DNA of 64,000 nucleotides from Bdellovibrionota bacterium (GCA_050952645.1 JBMNLI010000012.1:96001-160000), one strand, 5' to 3'. Counted from the stretch's first letter, positions 28,811 through 36,522 are shown. Numbers and translations: made by a program. Notes: generated from the sequence alone by a model not told the origin.

Positions 28811-31111
28811 ATGGTAACTAAAAGATTAAAATTAGCTCTTTGGTGGGAAAGGATAGAAACTCCATTAAGGCTTGCACTATTTATTTTAGGAGCATCTCTA
28901 TTTGCTCTAATAGTATACTGGGTATATTGGCAAAGACCTGAGTTCGAGATCGAAAATTTTAGTAGCAACTTAACTTTCTTTATTCTAATCAATTTAAATA
29001 TCGCATTATTATTCGTTTTTGCTTTTCTAGTAGCGAGAAATATTGTAAAACTCGTTTTTGATAGAAGACGAAACATTTTAGGTTCAAAATTAAAACAAAA
29101 ATTAATTTTTGCCTTCGGTGGTTTAACTTTAGTCCCTACGATAATTATCTTCGTTCTTTCTAGTGGTATGCTTAGCCATTCGATGGAAGAAATTTTTTCT
29201 AATAATATTTTAGAAACTATAAGTAGTGCAAACGACCTAGCACAAAGTTATTGTGAGATTATAGAAAATAATTTTGAAAATATTAGCAAAAAAATTGAAA
29301 AGAAAATAAATGATTTACATGGCGCTAATAGTGCAAAAACAATAAATAAAAATATAATAGATAATAAAAATAAAGATAATAAAAATAATAGAAAAAACAA
29401 TAATAGAAAAAACATAGAGGAGATTTTTTCTAATGTAATTGCAAGCGAGAAGATTTTTAATATTTCATTAGTCGATAAAGATAGTAATATTATTGCTAAT
29501 AGTTCTAAAGAAAATATTTTTAAAAAATATAATTTGCCATTAGATTTTAAAGCTGTAAGTGAAACGATTAGCAAAGGAGTTTCGAGATCGGTTTTTAATA
29601 ATGTTAAAGAGGCTCAAGTTATAAGATTTTATTATCCTATAAAATTAAATGGAGTAAGTTATGGCATAGTTTTAATGGGGCTGTTAGATGAGAATATAAA
29701 TAAGGCGTTGCTCAAAGTAGAAGAAACGTATAATGAATATCAAAATTTACTATTTCATAAAAATCCAATTCGTTCGAGTTATTTGTTAACTCTTGCTATG
29801 ATGACTATGCTTATTTTATTTGCTGCTATTTGGATCGCATTTTATATCGCAAAAGAGATTACTATACCGATAGAAAAATTAGCTAATGCTACAAAGCAAG
29901 TAGCACTTGGAGATTACGATTGTTCTATAAAAATAATAGGGGATGATGAGCTTTCATATTTAAGCCGTTCATTTAACACGATGCTTTCCGATTTAAAGCA
30001 ATCGAAAAATGAAACTGAAAGACATAGGCTTTTTATGGAAACGGTTCTTTCAAATTTAGCGGTAGGAGTTATAACGCTAGACAAAAACAGGAAGCTTATA
30101 GCTGTAAACTCCGCAGCTAGCGATATTTTAAGTATAAAATCGGGAGTTCATGATGGGACTAAGTCGTTAAATGATATATTTGATAAACATATAGCAGATA
30201 AACTTATAAATTTATTAAACGATGCATCGCTTATTTTAGATGAGTTTAGCGCAGGTATGACCGATACTGAGTTTACTATAAGGGCAGAGGGGAGGGAATA
30301 TCAAATAGTATGCACGGCAGGAGCTATAGTCGATAATGTAGGAGATACGCTAGGAAGTGTTTTAATTTTTGATGACGTTACGGATTTATCTCATGCACAA
30401 AAAATGGCGGCTTGGAGAGAGGTTGCAAGACGTATAGCACATGAAATTAAAAACCCACTTACTCCTATAAAATTATCTGCACAGAGAATTAAAGGGAACG
30501 CCACAAAGGATAATCTTCCAAAGCTTTACGAAGAAAGCTCTACGATGATAGTTGAGCAGGTAGAAATTATTAAAAGACTTATAGATGAGTTTTCAAATTT
30601 TGCAAGAATGCCAACCTCTTCGTTTGAAAGGGTAGATGTAGTTTCATTTTTAAAAGAGATTATTAGTTCATTTTCAGAAAATAATAGTGATATAGAGTTT
30701 ATATCAGATTTTGAAGAAAACGAGTTAGAGGTTTCGATAGATGTAGGGCAGATGAGATTAGTTCTTTTAAACTTATTTGAAAATGCTATGCAAGCTTTAA
30801 GAAATGGGAAAGTAAGTAATCCTAAAATACACGTTAAACTATCTTATTTAAAAAAGATAAAATCTTTTTCCATAGAGGTAGCGGATAATGGTCCTGGAAT
30901 TTCCGATTTCGATAAGACGAGAATTTTTGAGCCTTATTTTACGACTAAAGAAACTGGCACTGGTTTAGGCTTAGCTATCGTTACCTCTGTAATCTCAGAC
31001 CATAGAGGACGAATAAGAACGTTTGATAATAAACCTAAAGGCGCTAAATTTATTATTACGCTTCCAATTTTTCAATCCGACGCTAAGACTAAGACTCAGA
31101 GATTTAATTAG
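28811..31111 (+). CDS. ntrY: NtrY-like sensor histidine kinase (HAMP-PAS-HisKA-HATPase)
   Basis: AWREVARRIAHEIKNPLTPIKLSAQR, EFSNFARMP, DNGPG, FEPYFTTK, GTGLGL. Confidence 0.88.
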   Translation: MVTKRLKLALWWERIETPLRLALFILGASLFALIVYWVYWQRPEFEIENFSSNLTFFILINLNIALLFVFAFLVARNIVKLVFDRRRNILGSKLKQKLIFAFGGLTLVPTIIIFVLSSGMLSHSMEEIFSNNILETISSANDLAQSYCEIIENNFENISKKIEKKINDLHGANSAKTINKNIIDNKNKDNKNNRKNNNRKNIEEIFSNVIASEKIFNISLVDKDSNIIANSSKENIFKKYNLPLDFKAVSETISKGVSRSVFNNVKEAQVIRFYYPIKLNGVSYGIVLMGLLDENINKALLKVEETYNEYQNLLFHKNPIRSSYLLTLAMMTMLILFAAIWIAFYIAKEITIPIEKLANATKQVALGDYDCSIKIIGDDELSYLSRSFNTMLSDLKQSKNETERHRLFMETVLSNLAVGVITLDKNRKLIAVNSAASDILSIKSGVHDGTKSLNDIFDKHIADKLINLLNDASLILDEFSAGMTDTEFTIRAEGREYQIVCTAGAIVDNVGDTLGSVLIFDDVTDLSHAQKMAAWREVARRIAHEIKNPLTPIKLSAQRIKGNATKDNLPKLYEESSTMIVEQVEIIKRLIDEFSNFARMPTSSFERVDVVSFLKEIISSFSENNSDIEFISDFEENELEVSIDVGQMRLVLLNLFENAMQALRNGKVSNPKIHVKLSYLKKIKSFSIEVADNGPGISDFDKTRIFEPYFTTKETGTGLGLAIVTSVISDHRGRIRTFDNKPKGAKFIITLPIFQSDAKTKTQRFN

Positions 31112-31126
31112 AGAAGATTTTTTTGG

Positions 31127-31388
31127 CTCTTCACGTTTTGAGTGGGTTAGAGTCTATCTTCTAATGTAAATTGACAAAATTATTTTATAAAACTGTTGTT
31201 GTTTTATTAAAATAATAGTTAATTTTATTGGTAAAAATAAACATTAGAGTTGTTAGGAAAAGTTATCCATAACTGATAGCAAGACCGAGCAATTAAAAGC
31301 TAAAGGTCAGGCTGTGGATAACTTTCACAAAGACCTTACTAACAAAAATGGTGTCTTATTTCTCTCAACCCACTTAAAATGTGAAGAA
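31127..31388. mobile_element. MITE-like element with terminal inverted repeats and an internal hairpin
   Basis: CTCTTCACGTTTTGAGTGGGTTAGAG ... CTCTCAACCCACTTAAAATGTGAAGA; same terminal motif as the dispersed family; no ORF. Confidence 0.6.
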
Positions 31389-31493
31389 GAGCTTAATTTA
31401 ATAATCCGTGAATCTATTTTTTATGTGATAGAAGGTCGTTTGATAATGCTCAAATATGTTTCTGATTGATTGTTAGTTAATTCAAAAAAATAG

Positions 31494-31524
31494 TTGACTA
31501 TATATATATATATATATATATAAT
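31494..31524 (+). promoter_or_regulatory. Sigma-70 promoter with (TA)12 tract, candidate phase-variable
   Basis: TTGACT (31494-99), 19-bp spacer, TATAAT (31519-24); (TA)12 spans 31499-31522. Confidence 0.7.
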
Positions 31525-31581
31525 TTTTTTGCTTGTATTAGAGTTAATAAAATTATTTTGAATTATATGGGAGAGAATATT

Positions 31582-31722
31582 ATGAATAGTAAGATATATG
31601 TAAGACCAGTAATTGTTGGGTGTTATGGTAAAAGTGGATGTTCAGTAGGAAATAAGTCTAATAAGACTGACAAAGATAACAATAAAGAAAGAAAAGACAA
31701 AAAAGATAATAATAAAAAATAA
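31582..31722 (+). CDS. Putative RiPP precursor peptide (46 aa, absent from the ORF track)
   Basis: MNSKIYVRPVIVGCYGKSGCSVGNKSNKTDKDNNKERKDKKDNNKK*. GGGAGAG RBS 6 nt upstream; YxxPxI leader motif; first ORF before rSAM/SPASM + RRE. Confidence 0.75.
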   Translation: MNSKIYVRPVIVGCYGKSGCSVGNKSNKTDKDNNKERKDKKDNNKK

Positions 31723-31974
31723 TAATATTTTTGCAACGAATTTTTTCCTATCAAATAAGGTGAACACTTCTTAATTAAGGTAAATTATTACGATAAGTTT
31801 TGCATTGAAATCTTTTTGATAAGAAGAATTTTTCTGTTATATGTTTTTGTGAATGAAGGAAAAATTTAGGTAATTATCATTAGTCAAGAAAATTTTTGTT
31901 TTTCTTATGCAAAACTAAGTTCTTTATTGTAATCAAGGTGTTTTAAAAAGAGCTTTGAAGAACTTTTCTGTTTT

Positions 31975-32994
31975 ATGAGTAAGTATAAACTGATGAGATT
32001 TGAAAATTTTAGATATTTAGACAGTTTTTACCCTTTTAAGTTGTCTTGGATGATTACAACACGGTGTAATATTAATTGTAATTTTTGCTTTCTTCCTTGT
32101 CTACTTAGGAAAGAAGAGATACATAGTATTCCAGTAAAAGATGTTTTGCAATGGTGTAAAAAGCATAAGATTTTTTCTTTAGAAGTTTTTGGTGGGGAGC
32201 CTTTTTTAGAGATTGATAGATTAATTGAGATAATAAAGAATACAAAAAAAGGAGAACCATATTTATCTAGAATTAGCACTAATGGCACGATTTACAACAA
32301 GAAAGTAGGGAAGCTACTCAGAGATTTGGAAAATTTTCAGCAGTTGCAGGTGAGTTTAGATGTTTCGGATAGTAATTCATATTTTGATATAAAAGGTAAA
32401 GATTATTTTGATAATGTTATAAACAATATCAAAAATTATGTTAGGGATAAAGTTCCTGTATCTCTAAGTGTTGTATTATCAACGCAAAATTTTCATATGA
32501 TAGTTGATTTAATTAAATTAGCAGAACAATTAGATGTAAAAAATATTAGTTTTGATGGGATGATGTGTAATAATGCTAATAGTGCCTATCATAATTGTCA
32601 TTTAACATATTTAGAAATGATTGAATTAAAAAACAAGCTAACAAATATGAAGAGTAGCAAAGTAAAGATAATATTGAATAATTCATATAATAGCAAAGGT
32701 CATAATTATAATAATTGTATGGCGGGTTTTACTGAAATGACTTTGCTTCCGAATGGCGATATTTATCCTTGTTCACTTTGCTTGTCAGATAACGATTTAA
32801 AGTTAGGTAGTATTTACAAAGGAATCGATAAGGAACGCAATGAAAAGCTGAAAAAATTTCTAAAGTATAGAGTATCTAGCAAGTGTCGCAATTGCGAGTT
32901 GCCATCTATTTGTGATGGTGCATGTAAACTTGTTCAACTGCAACGTGTTAAAAGTTTTTATAAAACCATAGGTTGTGATGATATTGGAAATTAA
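31975..32994 (+). CDS. Radical SAM/SPASM domain peptide maturase-like enzyme
   Basis: CNINCNFC (CxxxCxxC), FGGEPF, STNGT, QVSLD; SPASM CMAG...NGDIYPC...CRNC...CDGAC. Confidence 0.93.
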   Translation: MSKYKLMRFENFRYLDSFYPFKLSWMITTRCNINCNFCFLPCLLRKEEIHSIPVKDVLQWCKKHKIFSLEVFGGEPFLEIDRLIEIIKNTKKGEPYLSRISTNGTIYNKKVGKLLRDLENFQQLQVSLDVSDSNSYFDIKGKDYFDNVINNIKNYVRDKVPVSLSVVLSTQNFHMIVDLIKLAEQLDVKNISFDGMMCNNANSAYHNCHLTYLEMIELKNKLTNMKSSKVKIILNNSYNSKGHNYNNCMAGFTEMTLLPNGDIYPCSLCLSDNDLKLGSIYKGIDKERNEKLKKFLKYRVSSKCRNCELPSICDGACKLVQLQRVKSFYKTIGCDDIGN

Positions 32995-33184
32995 TACAAG
33001 TATTAAAATACGCGTGTTTAAAAAATTGGTATATATTTATATTCCACAAAATGATGCGATTTATGAGATGACAAATAATGATTGGAATAAAGTTAATTTA
33101 TTATACGGAGTTCCTATCAAAAAAAGTATTCTTAATTTTACAGAAAAAAAATTAGTTGAAATGAAAATTTTATTTTTAAAATGA
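32975..33184 (+). CDS. Small PqqD/RRE-like protein
   Basis: 69 aa with three beta-like segments then helices ending KLVEMKIL; overlaps both neighbours. Confidence 0.5.
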   Translation: MMILEINTSIKIRVFKKLVYIYIPQNDAIYEMTNNDWNKVNLLYGVPIKKSILNFTEKKLVEMKILFLK

Positions 33185-33912
33185 AAGATATAGAATTAAT
33201 CGAAATAAATTTAGGCATGTCCGATTGTCATTGTGTTGTGGATTCCAATTTTGACATAAAATTTAAACAACTTAAGATGATTTTTGAAAATTTACCTTGG
33301 AGTAATGCTGAAATTGGAATAGGTGGTCATCCATTTAGATATCCTTGGTGGAAAAGTATGCTATTTTTTTTATCAAATAGTGGTAGAAAGATTTATTTTG
33401 TAGATACTATTAACTTTTTGACTAAAGAAAAAATTGATGTAATAAACAGTTTTAATAATTTTCATTTGATTATTGAAGTAGAAAAACAAAAAGATTTAGA
33501 AGATATTCATAAAAATCAAATTAAGTATGAGGCTTTAATGTGTTCATTTAATAACATACAAAATATAATAATGAATGATAATATTGTAATAGAACAACCA
33601 GTAACTAATATCAATGCAATAATGGAAGAGTATGCAAAACAATTTTTCAAACATTATAAAAAAGATATTTGTAGGTTGAATGAACAAACTATTGTATGTG
33701 TTGCAATTGATGGTGATGTGTATCCTTGTGTTGCTTTGCAGCAAAAAACTTATTGTTTAGGCAATATATTTAATGATGATGAGAAAAAAATTAAAAAAGA
33801 ATATGGCTCGTTTATAAAAAAGATAAGTTGTAAATATTGTTGTCAAGGACGAAGTGTATCAAGATATAAAATTTTAAATTGTGATTTTTTATGTAACCAT
33901 AGAGAGATATGA
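33181..33912 (+). CDS. Degenerate radical SAM-like protein with SPASM/Twitch domain
   Basis: No CxxxCxxC (only DCHC) and GGHPF in place of GGEP; retains C...IDGDVYPC...LGNI...CKYCCQG...C. Confidence 0.75.
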   Translation: MKDIELIEINLGMSDCHCVVDSNFDIKFKQLKMIFENLPWSNAEIGIGGHPFRYPWWKSMLFFLSNSGRKIYFVDTINFLTKEKIDVINSFNNFHLIIEVEKQKDLEDIHKNQIKYEALMCSFNNIQNIIMNDNIVIEQPVTNINAIMEEYAKQFFKHYKKDICRLNEQTIVCVAIDGDVYPCVALQQKTYCLGNIFNDDEKKIKKEYGSFIKKISCKYCCQGRSVSRYKILNCDFLCNHREI

Positions 33913-34428
33913 ATGAATAATTTGTTTAGTAACGATAAAGATATAATTTATTTATTTGATGCAATAGATGAAAATGTATCCCATCAAATAATAAAAGAAA
34001 TAATTATAAAAAGCCAAATATCTAACAATATCTTTCTTTTTATCAATAGTCCAGGGGGAAGTGTAATAGATGCATTGGCAATATATGATATTATTCAATA
34101 TTATAAAGATAAAATTACTACTGTTGGGTTAGGTGTTGTTGGTAGTATTGCAACACTTTTGCTTTCTTCAGCAAGTTTTAAAAAGAGATATTTATTTAAT
34201 AATACTACAATTCATATACATTTGCCGTTTGGGGTTACTGAAATTGAGGAAAGCAAAAGCAACGAAGTAATCATGGAAGAATTAAGATTAGTAGAACTTG
34301 CCACTGGGTTATTTACGAAACATACTAATAGTAAATTAAACCTTGATAGGCTTGGAAAGCAAGAAAATTTAATATTCAATGCATATGATGCAGTAAATAA
34401 TTATGGGCTGGCAGACCATATTATTTAG
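33913..34428 (+). CDS. ClpP-like serine protease (S14)
   Basis: FINSPGGSVIDALAIYD, GVVGSIA (catalytic Ser position), IHIHLP (His), YGLADHII. The catalytic Asp position appears substituted (QENL). Confidence 0.85.
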   Translation: MNNLFSNDKDIIYLFDAIDENVSHQIIKEIIIKSQISNNIFLFINSPGGSVIDALAIYDIIQYYKDKITTVGLGVVGSIATLLLSSASFKKRYLFNNTTIHIHLPFGVTEIEESKSNEVIMEELRLVELATGLFTKHTNSKLNLDRLGKQENLIFNAYDAVNNYGLADHII

Positions 34429-34458
34429 TAGTTATTTAATTTTTAGGAAGGGTATAAA

Positions 34459-35481
34459 ATGTTTGAACAAGAAATAAGTATTGAGAAGAAAATTGATATG
34501 ATTATTTTAGAATATGTATCAAAAAATCTTTTAAAAAATAATAATGATATTAAAGCCGTGTTTCTTGTTGGTTCTGCCGCAAGAGGAGAGCTGTCAAGGA
34601 TATCAGATATTGATTTGTTGATAATTACAAATAAAAAACTTTCTGACGATCAGCAAGATAATATGCGTTCGGATGTTTATAAAGGATTGAGATTTTCTAT
34701 GCTCTATACTAATTTATCTTTATTGAAAGAGGGTGTAAGTCAAGAAATTCCTGCAACGATTACGTTCATTATTGATGCAAAGGTTATTTACGATCCTGAC
34801 GCTTTATTAAAAACTATAAAGTCACTTCTTAATGATTTTAAGTTGTCAAATAATTTAAAAGAAGAAATTATAAGTGCAGAAAACAGGTTAAGTATTTTAA
34901 AAGATGCAAGCTTAGAAAATCAAAATTTTAATATTTTAATGACATCAATAGATTTAGCGAGAGAGTTTTTATGTTTGAACAATGATCCTTATATGGCAGT
35001 TAAACATTTATATAAACATTTAAGCTTATATAATAATAGTTATGCTGAAAGTTTTAGAGAAATATGGAAATGTGAAGATGAATGCAAAGTAATTAAAATA
35101 TTTGAAAAACAAATTGCTAATTTAAATAAATTAAAGGATTGTAATCAATGCAAAAATAATAATATAAATATTATTCCAAGAATAGAAAATGCAGAAGAAG
35201 CTTTAAATACTGCAAAATATTTATTAAATAATAAAAATTTTGAAGCTGTGCCTATTGTGTTTTCTGAGACATACTATTTATATAGAGGTTTTATGGAATA
35301 TTTGGGGCATGATTTTGATATATTAACTTATGAAAATTTTTTTAGTCTTTTGAATATGGAATCTCCTAAATTGTTATTAAGTTTTAGTAAAATTTGGCAA
35401 TTTTTTGATCATATGAGTATTTTAAAAATTTTAAAAAAACAAATTGAATTTTTAAAAAATTTAAGTGGAATAATTTTATAA
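34459..35481 (+). CDS. Pol-beta superfamily (MNT-type) nucleotidyltransferase with helical/HEPN-like C-terminus
   Basis: VFLVGSAARGELSRISDIDLLII (GS...DxD); C-terminal ENAEEALNTAKYLL... resembles HEPN helix 1. Confidence 0.75.
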   Translation: MFEQEISIEKKIDMIILEYVSKNLLKNNNDIKAVFLVGSAARGELSRISDIDLLIITNKKLSDDQQDNMRSDVYKGLRFSMLYTNLSLLKEGVSQEIPATITFIIDAKVIYDPDALLKTIKSLLNDFKLSNNLKEEIISAENRLSILKDASLENQNFNILMTSIDLAREFLCLNNDPYMAVKHLYKHLSLYNNSYAESFREIWKCEDECKVIKIFEKQIANLNKLKDCNQCKNNNINIIPRIENAEEALNTAKYLLNNKNFEAVPIVFSETYYLYRGFMEYLGHDFDILTYENFFSLLNMESPKLLLSFSKIWQFFDHMSILKILKKQIEFLKNLSGIIL

Positions 35482-36522
35482 ATGTTAGTTTCATTAGTCG
35501 ATAAAAAATCTCAAAATACTATTTTAAATGGTGCATGTTATTCTTTAAAGGAATCAAACATTATATTTGATATAGGTCGTAGTTTTTATAAAAATGAAGA
35601 TTTTTATTTACAAATCAAAAATAATGAAAAGTTATTCGAACCACATTATAATCATTTTTCAAAAATAATAAATCTATTTATATCACATATACACGAGGAT
35701 CACTATGCTGGTATATTTAATATACCAAGTGATATTTTGATAAATTTATATATTGGAGAGGTTTCTTTTGATATTTTACAATACAAGGCACTCGAAATTG
35801 GCAAGCCTCTCCCCAGTTTTAATGAAGTTAATTTTTTTAAAAATAAAAATTTTGTTAATATAGAACACTGGAATATTATTCCTGTTTCAATTCCTCATAA
35901 TATAGTTGATACTTGGGGATTTGTTGTTAAAAGAAGTGGAAATGAAAATAAATTCATATATTCTCCTGATATAAGTGAATGTTTTTGGAATTATTTTAAT
36001 GTCCTAGAAAACGACACAGTTTTGATAGATATATTGCCGATGCTTCCAGATTTTATGTACAATAATGATTTAGATGCTATATCAAAATCTAAACAGAGAG
36101 AAATGGGATTAATATTATTTGTAGATTATGGTTGGGATTTTGATAGAATAAATTATTTTATGAATAATTATTTTTTTGAAAAGCGAGTTTTCTTCTCAAA
36201 AGAAATGTTTAATAATTCTAAAATAGTGAATTTTCAAAATAAAAGAAATTTTGATTTGCTAGATTTTTTTAATGCACAAGTATTGAGTGATGGAATTTAC
36301 ATTTGTTCAATTAGCGAATTATATGATGTTATTCTGAAGTACCCTAAATTAGAACTAAATGTAATATCAAATGTATTTGAATTAAGCATAAATAATAGAG
36401 ACATATTATCATTAACAAGTTATAAATTTTATAATTTTTTTAAAAGTGGACATTTACCTGCAAATAAAATAGAAGAATATAAAAGAACCCATCAAGGTGT
36501 TGATATAATAACCCATAATTAA
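35482..36522 (+). CDS. Metallo-beta-lactamase fold hydrolase (RNase J/beta-CASP-like)
   Basis: IIFDIG, ISHIHEDHYAG (HxHxDH), IPHNI, YSPD, C-terminal SGH. Confidence 0.82.
   Translation: MLVSLVDKKSQNTILNGACYSLKESNIIFDIGRSFYKNEDFYLQIKNNEKLFEPHYNHFSKIINLFISHIHEDHYAGIFNIPSDILINLYIGEVSFDILQYKALEIGKPLPSFNEVNFFKNKNFVNIEHWNIIPVSIPHNIVDTWGFVVKRSGNENKFIYSPDISECFWNYFNVLENDTVLIDILPMLPDFMYNNDLDAISKSKQREMGLILFVDYGWDFDRINYFMNNYFFEKRVFFSKEMFNNSKIVNFQNKRNFDLLDFFNAQVLSDGIYICSISELYDVILKYPKLELNVISNVFELSINNRDILSLTSYKFYNFFKSGHLPANKIEEYKRTHQGVDIITHN

Follow-up and report, generated by a model that had tools for sequence, protein, structure and literature searches.

The small open reading frame (ORF) at 31582-31722 on the plus strand of a 64,000-nucleotide stretch of Bdellovibrionota DNA (the window; GCA_050952645.1 JBMNLI010000012.1:96001-160000) encodes a peptide of 46 residues, MNSKIYVRPVIVGCYGKSGCSVGNKSNKTDKDNNKERKDKKDNNKK. 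We conclude, with a probability of about 0.8, that this peptide is the leader-core-tail precursor (A-peptide) of a radical S-adenosylmethionine (SAM) pathway for a peptide that is made by the ribosome and modified after translation (RiPP), encoded by the genes at 31975-36522. The peptide had been proposed in an earlier reading made from the DNA alone (the sequence-only reading), and translation of the plus strand reproduced it letter for letter. Its exact sequence was already present as a predicted protein in the protein collection searched. Pfam and NCBIfam assigned neither the window peptide (E up to 10) nor nine members of its family to any known family.

The length of the ORF alone is not beyond chance. 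The peptide gene sits in an 863-bp spacer with a G+C content of 25% (31% in the genome), and dinucleotide shuffles of this spacer contained an ATG-initiated ORF of at least 46 aa on the plus strand in 216 of 2,000 cases and on either strand in 510 of 2,000. The conservation of its sequence was examined with a leave-one-out profile, built on the 13 family members that remain once the window peptide is set aside, which was run against 45,779 pieces of the six-frame-translated genome. The window ORF was the sole significant match (39.9 bits, E = 5.7e-10); the runner-up in the genome scored 11.4 bits, and the best of 2,000 shuffled peptides scored 9.5 bits. This conservation is far beyond chance, and the ORF is a real gene. 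When two of the homologous loci described below, L017 and L018, were compared, the core and the first tail residues showed 4 synonymous versus 1 nonsynonymous codon differences, and the replacements in the leader were mostly conservative.

The ribosome-binding site named in the sequence-only reading, GGGAGAG, was found 6 nt ahead of the ATG at 31582. The frame stays open farther 5', where it contains another ATG (31567) and a TTG (31558). Because the ATG at 31567 overlaps GGGAGAG and has no Shine-Dalgarno sequence of its own, and because the relatives of the peptide start 5 to 7 residues ahead of the leader Tyr, 31582 is likely the start codon.

The position of the gene was then compared across loci by way of the radical SAM/SPASM maturase encoded downstream. 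A search of 5.8 billion proteins gave one maturase relative that was 54% identical (P0003) and one that was 32% identical (P0004), the rest being at or below 29%. No maturase above 28% identity was found in 40 related genomes, and a single-sequence maturase scan of genome contigs gave no match. Among the best 80 of 480 relatives from a profile scan of metagenome contigs, only L016 (38%), L017 (31%), and L018 (30%) were at least 30% identical; among the best 80 of 248 from species-representative genomes, only L096, from a metagenome-assembled genome (MAG) labelled Candidatus Iainarchaeum, reached at least 30% over most of its length (32%). A co-oriented small ORF was present directly 5' of the maturase gene in 4/4 of these loci, where the maturase is at least 30% identical over most of its length. 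The gap between the two genes is 6 nt in L016, whereas they abut in L096 (0 nt) and overlap in L017 and L018. When the peptide profile was run on the six-frame translation of 175 loci, it matched only the window, L016, L017, L018, and L096 (E = 1.6e-22 to 7.7e-5), and the next-best match had an E value of 3.4. No peptide homolog was found in the 170 loci with more distant maturases. The idea that a precursor-type peptide lies beside its maturase is therefore supported by a linkage seen in the window and in 4/4 of the closest loci but in 0/170 of the others.

Two peptide-profile searches of proteins provided additional family members (P0021 to P0026 and P0027 to P0031). P0021, which has the same sequence as the L016 peptide, bears the NCBI name hypothetical protein, from a Candidatus Parcubacteria bacterium. 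Since an exhaustive search among 1.84 billion returned only 7 cluster representatives with an E value of 0.001 or less, the family appears to be very small, with the caveat that short genes are under-called. Across 124 genomes of the phylum, the peptide profile found the peptide in the genome of the window only; a match in G050 (19 bits, 10 residues, in an 18-aa frame) was dismissed as chance. The peptide family is rare and is common to a few uncultured bacteria and archaea.

An alignment of 14 peptides, the window included, divided the sequence into a leader, a core, and a tail (Table 1), with P9, C14, G16, G19, and C20 invariant in all 14. The leader follows the pattern K-[I/L/V]-[Y/F]-x-x-P-x-hydrophobic. 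Position 6 is Tyr in 13 sequences and Phe in L096, and the residue two after the leader Pro is I, V, or A in 8 sequences, M in 5, and Y in 1. The motif [Y/W]xxPx[L/V/I/F/A] is read in leaders by discrete lasso RiPP recognition elements (RREs), and YxxP is essential to the binding between LppB and LppA (PMC13381572). The last position of the motif is looser here than in that published set because of the M in 5 and the Y in 1 of the 14 peptides. The sequence-only reading had treated a YxxP-type motif as the handle for an RRE, a role that the same source confirms, and had made its proposal depend on the conservation of this motif and of the cysteines in homologous loci; [Y/F]xxP and both Cys were present in 14/14.

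All 14 peptides share the core C-[Y/F]-G-[K/R/N]-x-G-C. The aromatic residue at position 15 is Tyr in 11 of them and Phe in 3; at position 17, 11 have Lys, 2 have Arg, and 1 has Asn. Tyr15 had been suggested as a crosslink site. With Phe in 3/14, only an aromatic ring is conserved at this position, which weakens the suggestion of a phenol-specific site, and phenol-oxygen chemistry at position 15 is disfavored because of these Tyr-to-Phe exchanges within the family. The placement of the conserved core in the middle of the peptide was borne out, since a nonconserved tail comes after it. The window, P0023, P0030, and P0021 have a long, basic tail; the archaeal-type sequences have a short one rich in acidic residues (D/E), and that of L096 is neutral. 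The view of the tail as a removable follower is compatible with the data because the tails vary in length and charge and because a ClpP-like peptidase is encoded in the two loci with long basic tails. The K/N/D richness of the window tail may also be AT-rich compositional drift, as a similar N/K-rich insert occurs in a neighboring histidine kinase. This NtrY-like kinase (28811-31111) has no adjoining response regulator; its low-complexity insert makes it evident that the composition of this genome favors K/N-rich runs in general.

The 69-aa ORF at 32975-33184, which shares 20 nt with the 3' end of the maturase gene, is accepted here as a predicted, shortened RRE because its fold matches combine with its position and with the PqqD matches of its archaeal counterparts. 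An AlphaFold2 model (five-sequence alignment) had a predicted local distance difference test (pLDDT) score of 88.1 and consisted of four strands followed by helices. A Foldseek search against the PDB gave RRE-bearing RiPP proteins as all ten best matches (E = 0.09 to 0.5). After realignment, the structural Z scores were 7.5 for the N-terminal RRE of the radical SAM enzyme TigE, 7.2 for TbiB1 with bound leader, 6.8 for lasso B1 (6jx3), 6.5 for the PbtF RRE, and 4.7 for PqqD; MadB, ThcOx, MccB, and McbB also matched, with Z scores below that of PbtF. The assignment of this ORF as an RRE in the sequence-only reading thus agrees with the modeled fold. By position, its counterparts in L017 and L018 matched Pfam PqqD above the cutoff (E = 2e-9 and 1.6e-9, respectively), that in L096 matched PQQ PqqD TIGR03859 below its cutoff (E = 3e-6), and that in L016 matched PqqD faintly (E = 0.17).

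By analogy with lasso B1 and LppB, the 69-aa RRE would bind the leader YVRPVI as an added beta-strand and would present the core to the maturase. The likeness to the lasso B1/LppB systems lies in the stand-alone PqqD-like RRE, with TbiB1 and lasso B1 among its best structural matches, and in the [Y/F]xxP leader, a motif whose role is known from PMC13381572. The window differs in that no lasso cyclase, B2 protease, or HprK-type kinase was found among its ORFs scanned, in that the partner of the RRE is a radical SAM protein, and in that the RRE is about 15 to 20 residues shorter (69 aa versus 84 to 94 aa in the solved RRE chains matched).

The maturase contains the cluster motif CNINCNFC and has no N-terminal RRE domain of its own. 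Its Pfam SPASM score was 27.2 bits versus a cutoff of 21.5, and the cysteines of the SPASM auxiliary clusters (C248, C266, C304, and C307) are invariant across six maturases; the branch formed by L017, L018, and P0004 lacks the last SPASM Cys block. Among the best 25 of 63 NCBIfam families, the window maturase scored highest with PapB (NF047865; 103.4 bits versus a cutoff of 340), followed by WgkB (82 versus 650) and MftC (75.2 versus 265); lower scores were obtained with PqqE (62 versus 381), the SCIFF maturase (TIGR03974; 50.3 versus 425), and StsB (48.6 versus 625), and neither AlbA nor SkfB was among these 25. The best match was WgkB for the L016 maturase and MftC for that of L096. In a PDB search with a profile of six maturase family members, the solved relatives were CteB (7.6e-27), SuiB (2.5e-21), and SkfB (2.1e-20), then anSME, and PqqE (7.7e-12). 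From these profile scores, the PapB-type thioether families appear to be the nearest relatives of the maturase and not its family.

The radical SAM/SPASM enzyme would cross-link the seven-residue core. One or two Cys-derived thioethers are our leading guess for the product, held tentatively and at somewhat under even odds, because both Cys are invariant and because the nearest characterized relatives include PapB, CteB, and SkfB. The sequence-only reading had put forward Cys14 and Cys20 as thioether donors, for which they are candidates here. The likeness to the ranthipeptides and sactipeptides (PapB/freyrasin, SCIFF/CteB, and SkfB) consists of a radical SAM/SPASM maturase and a short Cys-bearing ribosomal peptide, with PapB as the best NCBIfam match and CteB and SkfB as the best and third-best solved relatives. 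The differences are that the window maturase lies far below the cutoffs of these families and has a separate RRE instead of a fused one, and that the core is a single C-x5-C with invariant Gly rather than a set of repeated Cys motifs. We know of no ranthipeptide or sactipeptide pathway that includes a SPASM-only protein, a ClpP-fold protein, a KNTase-like nucleotidyltransferase (NTase), and a metallo-beta-lactamase (MBL) protein.

The same precursor and pathway could instead yield a C-C cyclophane crosslink, of the type seen in triceptides or WGK/streptide-type peptides, that joins the aromatic ring of residue 15 to the side chain of residue 17, an outcome we regard as unlikely; the two Cys might then serve, for example, in a disulfide or in metal ligation. 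Positions 15 to 17 are aromatic-Gly-[K/R/N] in 14/14, which is the form of the triceptide aromatic1-X2-X3 motif, and the Tyr-to-Phe exchange retains the ring and loses the hydroxyl. WgkB is the second-best NCBIfam match of the window maturase and the best of L016, and SuiB is its second-best solved relative. The core triplet [Y/F]-G-[K/R/N] resembles the WGK motif. Triceptides are defined by aromatic1-X2-X3, with HTK and FTK accepted and YDR as a native motif (PMC11499958). The likeness of the core to the triceptides and other cyclophane RiPPs (XncB, ChlB, HtkB; WgkB, SuiB) is one of form only, however: there is one copy of the motif, between two invariant Cys, and no family cutoff was reached, with WgkB not approached (82/650 bits). 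The triceptide synthase ChlB (9gm3) was marginal against the maturase profile (E = 2.5e-4 versus 7.6e-27 for CteB); the other triceptide synthases have no structure there. Moreover, the two Cys, the strictest conserved side chains, are not needed by a cyclophane.

The operon at 31975-36522 consists of six tightly packed genes on the plus strand, whose starts and stops overlap or abut except for one 30-nt gap. All six products have counterparts in L016 (identities: maturase, 38%; RRE, 27%; SPASM-only protein, 31%; ClpP-like protein, 41%; NTase, 38%; MBL-fold protein, 31%). The archaeal locus L096 keeps the RRE, the SPASM-only protein, and the NTase. The cassette of L017 and L018 contains only the peptide, the maturase, PqqD, and a 744-aa PPDK_N/phosphoenolpyruvate (PEP)-utilizing enzyme, which occupies the place held by the NTase in other loci. 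In L017 (2827-7920) and L018 (1-4860), this cassette lies between the genes for S-adenosylmethionine (AdoMet) decarboxylase and spermidine synthase.

The SPASM-only protein lacks CxxxCxxC but still has a GGHP motif and, at the C terminus, a Cys region resembling that of SPASM; its AlphaFold2 model (pLDDT, 50.9) was too poor for a fold search. The ClpP-like protein lacks about 28 to 36 N-terminal residues of ClpP and aligned to chain 8r04_A from about residue 37. The Ser and His of the triad are aligned, and Asn replaces Asp. The protein probably works as a peptidase on its own, or as an enzyme with a Ser-His dyad, independent of ClpX/ClpA. This protein would trim the leader and/or the long basic tail. 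The nearest ESM Atlas clusters of the NTase are NTP_transf_2/KNTase_C proteins, and the NTase aligned with its counterparts in L016 (38% identity, E = 4e-39) and L096 (23%, E = 6e-19). Its helical, substrate-side domain is doubled, residues 129-222 and 235-333 both matching the same part of the 230-aa L016 protein. The MBL-fold protein scored 20.2 bits with Lactamase_B_2, below the cutoff of 27, and matched RNase J/Z weakly; it aligned with its L016 counterpart with an E value of 5e-38. A nucleotidyl or phosphoester group would be attached, and perhaps processed, by the KNTase-like NTase and the MBL protein; in the archaeal branch, this role would fall to the PEP-utilizing phosphotransferase instead. 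Between the RRE and SPASM-only genes of L096 (3529-4233), a CbiR-like TIM-barrel protein is encoded (57.5 bits versus a cutoff of 105). CbiR is a cobamide-remodelling phosphodiesterase. The CbiR-like protein of L096, together with the bacterial MBL protein, hints at phosphodiester chemistry in the pathway.

In general architecture, the operon resembles the LPP clusters (PMC13381572): both combine a leader bearing YxxP with a discrete RRE, a peptidase for the leader, and an NTase beside peptide-modifying enzymes. The window differs in several respects. An HprK-like kinase domain was found in none of the 14 window ORFs scanned, and L017 and L018 have the PPDK_N/PEP-utilizing enzyme instead; the window NTase belongs to the Pol-beta/NTP_transf_2/KNTase type; the fold of the peptidase is that of ClpP, not of S24/S26 or SpI; and the peptide core is not the same. 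In LPP, deletion of LppN had no detectable effect according to the same source.

Several observations weigh against the precursor reading. The maturase was below the cutoff of every NCBIfam family among the best 25 of 63, the thioether families included; the triplet [Y/F]-G-[K/R/N] suits an aromatic-to-side-chain C-C crosslink equally well. The 69-aa ORF had no Pfam or NCBIfam match even at an E value of 10, the hhalign comparison of the two bacterial with the three archaeal RRE-like proteins was weak (probability of 19.6% over 23 columns), and the structural Z scores are all below 8 and not decisive alone. The roles of the peptidase, NTase, and MBL protein rest on co-occurrence in 2 to 3 loci. 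The 252-bp gap between the peptide gene and the maturase gene is unlike the abutting or overlapping genes in L016, L017, L018, and L096, and no RNA run was among the sequencing runs listed as carrying this DNA. Together with the unremarkable length of the ORF and the lack of a terminator or promoter signal beyond chance, these last two points would suit a chance frame in an AT-rich spacer, or an unmodified Cys-pair peptide (metal binding or regulatory) that merely neighbors the operon. Such an explanation is highly improbable. Sequence and position directly 5' of an orthologous maturase are conserved across domains in 4/4 of the other loci with context, and the peptide co-occurs with an RRE, whose sole known role is precursor peptide binding. 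Given the adjacent homologs, the leave-one-out profile, and the synonymous excess in the core between L017 and L018, we reject the chance-ORF version, which is close to refuted.

Another possibility concerns the fate of the product, which might be an intracellular peptide-derived cofactor or signal like pyrroloquinoline quinone (PQQ) or mycofactocin, perhaps with a nucleotide handle. Neither a transporter nor an immunity protein was found among the neighboring ORFs scanned in five loci, the carriers include lineages labelled Parcubacteria and Iainarchaeum, and MftC was among the top NCBIfam matches. The maturase is accompanied by an NTase (window, L016, and L096) or a PEP-dependent phosphotransferase (L017 and L018), phosphodiesterase-type folds are encoded nearby (MBL, and the CbiR-like protein in L096), and the cassette of L017 and L018 lies between the AdoMet decarboxylase and spermidine synthase genes. 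However, this result covers only the ORFs scanned, and exporters can be encoded elsewhere; the lack of a transporter is to be read with that scope. MftA ends in a C-terminal Val-Tyr, and PqqA carries E-x3-Y. The window peptide has neither feature and ends in a K/N/D tail, and the maturase did not reach the MftC and PqqE cutoffs. A patchy rarity, with 1/124 genomes of the phylum, suits an accessory trait better than a cofactor. We consider a cofactor or signal of this type doubtful.

Upstream of the peptide gene, TTGACT and TATAAT form a putative promoter, as judged from the sequence (Table 1). The 19-nt spacing between them was not listed by the promoter scan, which admits 16 to 18 nt only. 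A perfect (TA)12 tract fills this spacing, and one TA unit fewer would give the optimal 17 nt. A TA tract between promoter boxes is a slipped-strand, phase-variable promoter layout, as in Haemophilus fimbrial genes. Logan contigs of other runs end at the TA tract. A pair of DnaA-box-like 9-mers at 31263 and 31313 (31263-31321; one perfect, one mismatched, 50 bp apart) is probably meaningless and was dropped because the number of boxes in the window equals chance (13 versus 14.0 expected). In the 252 bp that separate the peptide gene from the maturase gene, the terminator scan found no terminator and the fold was not unusual (z = +0.87). An Rfam search of 31050-32050 gave only a subthreshold snoRNA match, which was dismissed.

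Table 1. Features of the peptide locus and the operon, in window coordinates
Feature	Position	Strand	Basis
Promoter-like elements: TTGACT (31494-31499), (TA)12 (31499-31522), TATAAT (31519-31524)	31494-31524	+	Read from the sequence; TA tract by Tandem Repeats Finder
GGGAGAG, Shine-Dalgarno-like, 6 nt 5' of ATG 31582	31569-31575	+	Read from the sequence
Precursor peptide gene (probable), 46 aa plus stop	31582-31722	+	Alignment (n = 14), leave-one-out profile, adjacent homologs in L016, L017, L018, and L096
Leader, about residues 1-13, with Y6-V-R-P9-V-I11	31597-31614 (Y6 to I11)	+	14-sequence alignment
Core C14-Y-G-K-S-G-C20	31621-31641	+	14-sequence alignment
K/N/D tail, nonconserved, residues 21-46	31642-31719	+	14-sequence alignment
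Spacer from peptide gene to maturase gene, 252 bp	31723-31974	+	Terminator scan, Rfam, folding
Radical SAM/SPASM maturase, 339 aa	31975-32994	+	Pfam Radical_SAM 1.2e-14, Fer4_12, SPASM 4.8e-6
Shortened PqqD-like RRE (predicted), 69 aa	32975-33184	+	AlphaFold2 fold, structural matches, positional PqqD counterparts
SPASM-only protein, 243 aa	33181-33912	+	Pfam SPASM 1.4e-4; aligns with L016 and L096 counterparts
ClpP-fold peptidase, 171 aa	33913-34428	+	Pfam CLP_protease 1.7e-29; 41% identical to L016 counterpart
Nucleotidyltransferase, 340 aa	34459-35481	+	Pfam Pol-beta/NTP_transf_2 head; KNTase-like helical domain, duplicated
MBL-fold protein, 346 aa	35482-36522	+	HxHxDH-like HIHEDH; Pfam Lactamase_B_2 E = 4.8e-4

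The genome assembly comprises 17 contigs with a total of 1.95 Mb and has a completeness of 94%. The RuvB encoded in the window is 65 to 68% identical to its best named matches, from MAGs labelled Deltaproteobacteria, Oligoflexia, or Bdellovibrionales. The genes on both flanks are housekeeping genes, namely, those for cysteine desulfurase, RuvB, and the NtrY-like histidine kinase upstream and those for a convergent HD-domain protein, an RNA methyltransferase, and TrmD downstream; a Pfam scan found no transporter among the flanking genes. The peptide cluster is somewhat more AT rich than the genome, and a putative horizontal acquisition of the cluster is plausible. Four more sequencing runs, which come from four studies of digester, bioreactor, or unspecified metagenomes, have contigs with identical DNA; these contigs are uninformative on selection because they are identical wherever they cover the stretch.

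The literature searched holds no description of the peptide family, the supplementary tables of genome-mining studies, a possible place for such precursors, being outside the search; the core heptamers, used as literature text, returned unrelated curli work only. The locus probably represents a tractable new RiPP family, with a 7-residue core of five constrained positions, a 339-aa maturase, and an RRE shorter than the solved chains that it matches. The accessory set, comprising a SPASM-only pseudo-enzyme, a ClpP-fold peptidase minus the ClpX-docking N terminus, a KNTase-like NTase, and an MBL protein, has no described precedent. The peptide family spans the bacteria-archaea boundary, in lineages thought to be poor in secondary metabolism, and yet is extremely rare. 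As a speculation that we rate as quite improbable, the product would belong to a new class, in which a seven-residue C-[Y/F]-G-[K/R/N]-x-G-C ring would be formed by the radical SAM enzyme and a catalytically "blind" SPASM partner and would then be O-nucleotidylated (bacterial and Iainarchaeum-type loci) or phosphorylated by the PEP enzyme (other archaeal loci). Its role would be that of a cofactor inside the cell or of an effector passed between cells, as opposed to a classical bacteriocin, and the carriers would be microbes that have reduced genomes or depend on hosts (the lineages labelled Parcubacteria and Iainarchaeum, together with an Oligoflexia-like bacterium from a digester). The structure of the product would reveal the bond made by this branch of SPASM enzymes and whether a radical SAM RiPP pathway includes peptide nucleotidylation.

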